DNA from: Octopus vulgaris
Lineage: Eukaryota
Assembly (NCBI GenBank): GCA_951406725.2
Contig: OX597822.1
Span: 85,312,001-85,376,000, forward strand
Length of the DNA stretch: 64,000 bases
Direction of reading: 5' to 3'
The notes under the pieces are model-generated. The model searched no databases, was not told the origin of the DNA, and saw nothing but the letters and a program-made list of their open reading frames with translations. Below, piece by piece: positions 38,259 through 39,061 of the stretch (within the stretch, counting starts at the first letter, position 1; the number at the start of each line of letters is the position of its first letter). A program made the position numbers and the translations under genes.

Positions 38259-39061
38259 GCAATAATAATTCTCTAAAAGAGATATAGACAGTAACTGCTC
38301 GATAACATAAGGGACTAAAGCCATCTGAATATGGCTAGGGACAGGGCAGGGTGGTGGGGGTGTTACTGTTGCATTTAGCCCCAGGCGAACATCGACGAAG
38401 CTAGACACCGTCACGGTGTCCTTATCCCGACGATAATTCCCCGGGAAACCACACACGGACCATACACCTTGAAACCATGGTCCGTGTGTGGTTTCCGCTT
38501 CATCGGGGAATTCCTCTTTGCAGGATAAGGACACCGTGACGGTGTTCAAAGCCTTTCTGGTGACGTCGATGTTCGCCTGGGGCTAAATGCAACAGTAACA
38601 CCCCCACCACCCTGCCCTGTCCCTAGCCATATTCAGATGGCTTTAGTCCCTTATGTTATCGAGAAGTTACTGTCTATATCTCTTTTAGAGAATTATTATT
38701 GCTTTCGAACAGATTTTCGAAATCAGCAAATGTATTTTGCTTGAAAATCTATATGTGAAAATCCTGCAGAGTGAGAATTCGATCGAGGAAGCGGAAGCCT
38801 ACCACACGCCGACGATAGGCAATACACCTTGAAACCATGGTCCGTGTGTGGTTTCCTTCATCGGGGAATTACCTCCCTTTGCAGGATAAGGACACCGTGA
38901 CGGTGTCTAGCCTTTCTGGTGACGTCGATGTTCGCCTGGGGCTAAATGCAACAGTAACACCCCCACCACCCTGCCCTGTCCCTAGCCATATTCAGATGGC
39001 TTTAGTCCCTTATGTTATCGAGCAGTTACTGTCTATATCTCTTTTAGAGAATTATTATTGC
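38259..39061. mobile_element. Retrozyme-like element B: inverted partial arm plus about 1.7 tandem 360-nt monomers
   Basis: 38259-38461 is the inverted copy of the 3' part. 38462-38702 repeats at 38822-39061 (period 359-360). Both outer ends are the same sequence (...GAGAATTATTATTGC). (TA)n on both sides. Confidence 0.8.
38803..38848 (+). ncRNA. Type I hammerhead ribozyme, U4C variant (element B)
   Basis: CACACG-CCGACGA-U AGG caauaca CCU U-GAAA-C CAUG G-UC^CGUGUG: 6-bp stem I, palindromic stem III, core differs from CUGANGA at position 4. Confidence 0.7.

Follow-up and report, generated by a model that had tools for sequence, protein, structure and literature searches.

A 360-nt hammerhead repeat in the Ptf1a intron of Octopus vulgaris, probably inserted by a Penelope-type route

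A non-coding stretch of about 800 nt (element B, 38259-39061) lies within the single intron of Ptf1a in Octopus vulgaris, antisense to the gene. From its sequence and from analogy with published elements, we are fairly confident that it represents one insertion of a multi-copy, non-coding 360-nt repeat, likely a non-autonomous Penelope-type retroelement of the kind known as an animal non-LTR retrozyme. Positions are those of the window, the 64,000-nt stretch of octopus DNA that was analysed, which contains many microsatellites. Element B carries the marks of a Penelope-type insertion, namely a partial tandem with pseudo-LTRs, an inverted 5'-truncated copy and (TA)n on both sides, together with those of a non-LTR retrozyme: it is non-coding, has a GC content below 50% (45.6%) and is built of a unit within the range of about 170-400 nt.

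The element consists of an inverted, 5'-truncated arm followed by 1.67 head-to-tail units of 360 nt, set between (TA)n runs. Judged from the sequence, the (TA)n run at 38227-38258 and the (TA)n/(TATG)n run at 39062-39206 are the left and right parts of the likely target microsatellite. The inverted arm (38259-38463, minus strand) is the reverse complement of 38837-39061 minus three short deletions. It retains the GUC site and the 3' strand of helix I, the core being absent, and is identical to the second direct unit at 202 of 203 aligned columns. At the inversion junction it overlaps the first direct unit by 2 nt (38462-38463). This first unit (38462-38702, plus strand), 5'-truncated and pseudo-LTR-like, starts in hammerhead loop 2 and has its GUC at 38480-38482. 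After the head-to-tail joint comes a part that occurs once (38703-38820, plus strand), which contains the catalytic strand as well as the rod's 5' strand, and then the second direct unit (38821-39061, plus strand), with which the insertion ends, 219 nt past the cut site. The terminal base of this unit is also that of the inverted arm. The stretch 38462-38702 recurs as 38822-39061, and from 38478/38838 on the direct units are identical in 219 of 220 aligned columns, with gaps in 9 columns. All three copies carry indels of their own, and mechanical duplication by the assembler is therefore disfavoured.

The first-pass annotation had described a tandem 360-nt period with GUC sites at 38482 and 38842, and both ends are confirmed, 360 nt apart. 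The cut-to-cut monomer that they delimit (38483-38842, plus strand; 360 nt, 45.6% GC) is predicted to fold as a branched rod. Both rod helices quoted in that annotation are present; the 12-bp one pairs in full (12 of 12) with the copy 1 strand and falls 2 nt short in copy 2. The statement that the inverted arm stops close to the cleavage site also holds, the arm ending opposite 38837, 6 nt 5' of the cut. The notion that the cut site directs the inversion was rejected: in element A, described below, the junction is about 136 nt upstream of the cut, and both truncation points of element B are located upstream of the cut and do not coincide with it. By analogy, an inverted and partial-tandem layout in (TA)n needs no special explanation, being the published pattern of Penelope-like insertions. 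As for coding capacity, the sole ATG-initiated frame of at least 40 aa in element B runs into the TA repeat, and no RT or GIY-YIG frame is found in the element.

A complete type I hammerhead motif occupies 38803-38848 on the plus strand, with C3 at 38809, C4 at 38810, N7 at 38813 and C17 at 38842. It comprises the core CCGACGA (38809-38815), GAAA (38831-38834) and a 6-bp helix I; helix II has a U/U mismatch followed by 3 bp and a 7-nt loop, and helix III is formed by a self-complementary 8-nt region (38834-38841) that provides 2 bp in the monomer. The architecture claimed at the outset, namely that of element A (short stem II with basal mismatch, 7-nt loop, palindromic stem III) on a CCGACGA core, is thus what the sequence contains. 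Core position 4 is a C, deviating from CUGA. The element has one complete hammerhead only: the copy around the GUC at 38482 keeps loop 2 onward and is without the catalytic core, so that this locus does not have the two consecutive units with complete hammerheads by which Li et al. define an "active" retrozyme. A relaxed hammerhead scan of the window returned three matches, element B and two in element A; after shuffling, any match was seen in 9 of 200 windows and three matches in none of the 200, and shuffled versions of element B gave a match in 3 of 2000. Rfam yielded five matches for element B at E <= 10, all under the gathering score and none a hammerhead, and for the whole window no hammerhead stood among the best 150 of 441 matches.

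The monomer is predicted to be strongly structured (folding z = -6.05 as a linear and -6.6 as a circular molecule, 100 shuffles each). Its active hammerhead fold is predicted at -3.4 kcal/mol against a minimum of -11.6 kcal/mol, i.e., about 8 kcal/mol above it; in a dimer formed through the palindrome, the corresponding values are -23.8 and -28.6 kcal/mol, a gap of about 5 kcal/mol, and for the element A dimer the active fold is itself the predicted minimum. Folding of the entire element as a plus-strand RNA predicts that the second GUC is taken up in pairing with the inverted arm, and gives helix I a probability of 0.0. Thus, of the earlier proposal of a cut-to-cut monomer at 38483-38842, the monomer stands; its release by this locus itself is unlikely, because there is one complete ribozyme and the predicted fold hides the second GUC. 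Whether the C4 ribozyme of the family cuts is a separate matter, and folding models and analogy incline us, with modest conviction, to the view that it still does. In the published record, U4C considerably lowers hammerhead activity in vitro yet supports viroid infectivity, and a U10.1-U11.1 pair at the base of helix II is found in nature (both Perreault 2011, PMC3088659). Self-cleavage in vitro was reported for a natural CCGA hammerhead from a zeta virus (Serale 2026, bioRxiv 10.64898/2026.09.16.752053), mutations in the turn led to low activity in a hammerhead deep scan (PMC9901934), and 8 of 9 predicted Xenopus retrozymes failed to cleave (Li, Clavereau and Pollet 2026, bioRxiv 10.64898/2026.07.22.740005).

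Evidence that element B belongs to a family comes from sequencing runs. Parts of the monomer are present in 20 of the 24 listed runs (11 studies, five organism codes; 43-57% of sampled words). Contigs from 4 of the 24 (X1, X2, X8 and X9; three organism codes) were placed on 38703-39061, at 80% likeness and a 5% share. The types of these runs are guesses (X1 and X9 DNA, X2 and X8 RNA), none of the four being recorded as RNA, and X2 and X8 were not counted as a sign of transcription. The 20 runs outside these four enter only through the count of runs with monomer sequence. The monomer was matched by 1316 contigs in X1, a figure that is not a copy number, by 11 in X2 and by one each in X8 and X9. 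The head-to-tail joint (39061 to 38703) was recovered in all four runs, including those guessed to be DNA (X1 and X9). Further copies with the 360-nt period, which the first-pass annotation had called for, accordingly exist, and the family is multi-copy. The X8 contig, 390 nt long with a self-overlap of 30, describes a closed 360-nt cycle, which a circle and tandem copies would give alike. One X2 contig departs from the element at 39058, near the shared 3' end. No strand-switch joint was found among those listed, in what is a weak test covering 38703-39061 only, with 67 loose ends and 1327 pieces outside the listing. A metagenome scan with an exact 26-nt piece gave no matches. In X1, contig depth changes 40-fold from one part of the monomer to another; this gradient was considered as a sign of 5' truncation and discarded, summed contig depth being inflated at graph branches, and it gives no copy number either.

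The same contigs bear on the unusual core. At 38810 (C4), no other letter rises above the 5% listing threshold in any of the four runs, the X1 depth there being about 80,000. A U4 subfamily with a smaller share would stay below this threshold. In the whole-monomer contigs of X2 and X8 every difference is placed away from C4, and the X9 contig passes 38810 twice, with all four differences of one pass located elsewhere and one difference of the second pass left unplaced. The sole variant listed in the hammerhead is a C to T change at 38813 in X1, where T makes up 76,837 of 128,009 depth units (60%) over 10 contigs; this is core position 7, the free N of the consensus CUGANGA. Across the three organism codes, C4 appears to accompany either letter at position 7. 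Whether U4C is the family consensus had been raised as a check, and the runs answer it in the affirmative. We read C4, on the sequences, as the family state and not as decay, because no other letter exceeds 5% in four of four runs and the sole core variant falls at the free position 7. Having drawn this conclusion, we would note that the number of variant places in the hammerhead (1 observed among 21, 2.7 expected; P = 0.23) is a scarcity that is not significant alone.

Two relatives of element B are present in the window. Element A (about 13491-14232) joins an inverted partial tandem to a direct copy and has two complete CUGA hammerheads, one on each strand; the direct copy continues for about 60 nt after the inverted one has ended, an extension that resembles a PLE tail. 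Beside it, at 14325-15056 on the minus strand, is a fragment that we take to resemble the C-terminal region of a LINE reverse transcriptase. A (13864-14190) and B (38703-39061) align locally over about 250 nt through the hammerhead with a score of 77, which none of 1000 shuffles reached (31.9 ± 5.7). Taken by itself, the sequence beyond the cut scores 49, reached by 1 of 1000 shuffles, and the part before the core alone is weak, being reached by 34 of 1000. In helix I, both sides have changed at 5 of 6 pairs with full pairing in each element, and the two agree in the three bases 5' of the helix and in one base 3' of it; in helix III, each has a palindrome of its own. On sequence grounds the helix I changes read as covariation, between two families only, and elements A and B as detectably homologous, beyond sharing a class. 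The earlier claim that B is of the same class as A, with structure kept while sequence diverged, is upheld. The two have in common the hammerhead architecture and the inverted/direct layout beside (TA)n; A differs in its CUGA core, 10-nt palindrome, two complete hammerheads and unit of about 335 nt.

Element C (about 61255-61565) is made of two arms, one inverted and one direct, with 71% likeness between them; it ends in (TA)n and shares the downstream block with the others. It is without a hammerhead and scores 70 against B, where the maximum in 300 shuffles is 52. We regard it, from sequence comparison, as a third and older relative of A and B: the downstream block can be aligned with that of B and the layout beside (TA)n is alike, whereas the hammerhead of C has been lost. 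The block common to all three (38875-38945 in B, plus strand) starts 43-52 nt past the cut site, contains a hairpin and is a candidate cis signal. A profile of the A, B and C copies detected no further family members in the window. Just after a TA run, at 61582-61601, about 19 nt look like an inverted piece of the element B 3' end (E 0.52), which may be a chance match or a very short insertion.

How such an insertion may arise can be proposed from what is known of Penelope-like elements (PLEs). PLE insertions are described as partial tandems that prefer (TA)n and whose 5' end is often adjoined by a 5'-truncated copy in inverted orientation; most are 5'-truncated (Craig et al., bioRxiv 10.1101/2021.04.23.441226). 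In truncated PLEs, hammerhead pairs occur on opposite strands 100-700 bp apart, and PLE hammerheads with a small palindromic helix III act as dimers (Cervera and de la Pena 2014, PMC4209133). For an anole PLE, reverse transcription begins at fixed internal sites in vitro, AT-rich DNA is cut on both strands, and the ribozyme requires the PLE protein (Frangieh 2024, PMC11167929). Vertebrate non-LTR retrozymes are considered non-autonomous PLE derivatives (Li et al. 2026, bioRxiv 10.64898/2026.07.22.740005), and 31 recently active PLE families are reported from O. vulgaris (PMC13282606). For element B, a source locus would be transcribed as a head-to-tail multimer, and its hammerhead, weak as a monomer, would depend largely on dimerisation through the palindromic helix III for cutting, at a rate kept low by C4; ligation may then turn the 360-nt product into a circle. 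A Penelope endonuclease would then nick (TA)n, and its reverse transcriptase would begin 219 nt beyond the cut site, at a fixed internal position, and cross the cut site twice while making the direct part, which gives 1.67 units, and once for the arm. The second strand end would be primed likewise, and joining of the two cDNAs at the 2-nt overlap would produce the inverted arm.

Several observations sit well with this route. The coincident 3' ends, away from the cut site, fit the internal initiation of reverse transcription by the anole PLE, and the inverted plus direct layout recurs in A and C within the window. Since the reverse transcriptase would have passed the cut site and the truncation points lie elsewhere, the template at that site would have been circular or re-ligated, or else uncut. 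A tail of 30-40 bp, an optional PLE feature, is absent, both ends of B stopping at the same base, and no ORF of a partner PLE was recognised in the 64-kb window.

The question of an uncut template leads to the most serious alternative. In it the Penelope route is the same, and the hammerhead is a non-cutting relic: C4 would have arisen in a master copy and been amplified with it, cleavage being dispensable, uncut multimers would be the templates and no circle would be formed. We treat this as a tentative possibility of real weight. Insertion by the anole PLE in vitro was unaffected by hammerhead mutants, uncut RNA being the main template (Frangieh 2024, PMC11167929), and Naiad PLEs lack hammerheads yet proliferate (Craig et al., bioRxiv 10.1101/2021.04.23.441226). 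The cDNA of element B would itself have crossed the cut site, and the 360-nt contig cycle is explicable by tandem DNA, the joint being present in X1 and X9. However, the rest of the core, the helix I pairing and the helix III palindrome are kept between A and B and in three whole-monomer contigs, the single core variant occupies the free position, and natural CCGA hammerheads are able to cleave (Serale 2026, bioRxiv 10.64898/2026.09.16.752053).

The free-standing nature of the 360-nt unit might also be doubted, the copies being instead pseudo-LTRs that a longer, autonomous Penelope-like element left as truncated 3' ends. Such an origin would agree with the 5' truncation of most PLE insertions and with the presence of hammerheads with palindromic helix III in pLTRs (PMC4209133; bioRxiv 10.1101/2021.04.23.441226), to which Xenopus retrozymes are sister (Li et al. 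2026, bioRxiv 10.64898/2026.07.22.740005). We find it improbable, given that the 3' end joins 38703 directly in the window and in four of four runs, that the contig cycle is 360 nt with no room for an ORF, and that the only frame of at least 40 aa starting with ATG enters the TA repeat. Still less credible, to the point of being very improbable, is a layout produced by misassembly or by a DNA fold-back (MITE-like) element bearing a chance hammerhead. The private indels of the three copies, the recurrence of the layout in A and C with other sequences, the rarity of the hammerhead motif in shuffles and the tandem joint in all four runs speak against it, even though a 950-nt tandem duplication abuts the left side, where local assembly may be imperfect, and the inversion junction is not among the joints listed from the run contigs. 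Finally, the Penelope-type reading that we prefer can be carried further, to an octopus radiation of Penelope-parasitic RNA circles (A, B and C) in which B keeps a deliberately slow CCGA hammerhead over repeated amplification and across species, slow cutting leaves an uncut or circular template for the reverse transcriptase, and the 70-nt shared block is the cis signal that this enzyme binds for its start 219 nt beyond the cut site. We consider this extension unlikely.

Compared with known systems, element B is of a kind known from other animals, and its fixed CCGA core is a modest variant. Mussel retrozymes have units of 350-390 bp and abundant circles (Cervera and de la Pena 2020, PMC7229834). 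As described, metazoan non-LTR retrozymes (PMC7229834; Li et al. 2026) share with B a non-coding tandem unit of 170-400 nt, GC below 50%, a type I hammerhead, a self-paired monomer and a proposed mobilisation by PLEs; they have CUGA, whereas CCGA is the family state in B, and the B locus has one complete hammerhead and an inverted 5' arm. EN+ Penelope-like insertions and pLTR hammerheads share with B the partial tandem, inverted 5'-truncated copy, (TA)n target, palindromic helix III and fixed downstream 3' end. Unlike the minimal hammerheads described for PLEs, in which helix II has 6-8 bp (PMC4209133), that of B has 3 bp, and B further differs from PLEs in having no RT/GIY-YIG ORF and no 30-40 bp tail at either end. 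The natural U4C hammerheads of viroids and viroid-like RNAs have the same core change and are reported as weakened or still active (PMC3088659; Serale 2026). The viroid-like CCGA examples are, however, replicating RNAs (type III in Serale 2026), whereas B has a motif of type I, part of an animal repeat family in the genome, with a U/U pair at the base of helix II and a 2-bp monomeric helix III. In the literature searched, whose supplements were covered in part, no octopus retrozyme was found, nor a CCGA core fixed in an animal repeat family. Neither "inverted" nor octopus appears in the main text of PMC7229834; supplementary file 2 of PMC4209133 contains no octopus and no CCGA-core string; and "ribozyme" and "retrozyme" are absent from the main text of the O. 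vulgaris repeat paper (PMC13282606).

The host gene is on the minus strand, with its ATG at 47620 in the bHLH exon, a donor at 47175 and the exon 2 acceptor at 32119. The splice sites and the protein match define its single intron (32119-47175, minus strand, about 15 kb). Both exons match the O. vulgaris Ptf1a-like protein P0002 letter for letter, over 148 residues in exon 1, one junction residue and 63 residues in exon 2; this match and the strand of the gene bear out the first-pass placement of element B within the Ptf1a intron in antisense orientation. That annotation had also held that the element would leave the Ptf1a pre-mRNA uncut. We agree, as the Ptf1a strand of element B has no core and the pre-mRNA would therefore escape cutting. 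On that strand, folding predicts 253 long-range pairs in the transcript of the element, and the two arms of 38259-39061 are predicted to form a near-perfect intronic hairpin of about 200 bp, which on this model is a possible A-to-I editing substrate. Apart from this predicted double-stranded hairpin, the effect of element B on Ptf1a is probably nil, and the copy is likely a dead passenger.

Several other features of the window were recorded. At 36319-38257, a 950-nt tandem duplication (968 identities, 4 mismatches) ends in the TA run that element B occupies and is either a recent duplication or merged haplotypes. A short MITE-like fold-back palindrome lies at 39890-40040, with apparent relatives near 40090-40200 and 63400-63470. 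The frames at 25428-25760 and 27964-28350 presumably resemble decayed mariner transposase fragments.

The mobility of animal retrozymes and the purpose of their ribozyme are open questions in the field. Mobilisation by PLEs is given as untested in non-vertebrates by Li et al. 2026 (bioRxiv 10.64898/2026.07.22.740005), and the full Penelope footprint on a retrozyme-sized unit provides direct structural support for it in an invertebrate. With A (CUGA) and B (CCGA), the octopus offers a natural homologous pair for asking whether the cleavage rate matters. A family-wide CCGA core escapes Rfam here, and descriptors requiring CUGA would miss it too. Should the reading of a slow-CCGA radiation be true, the shared block would be the first recognition signal to be defined for animal retrozymes, and searches based on CUGA would be missing whole families.
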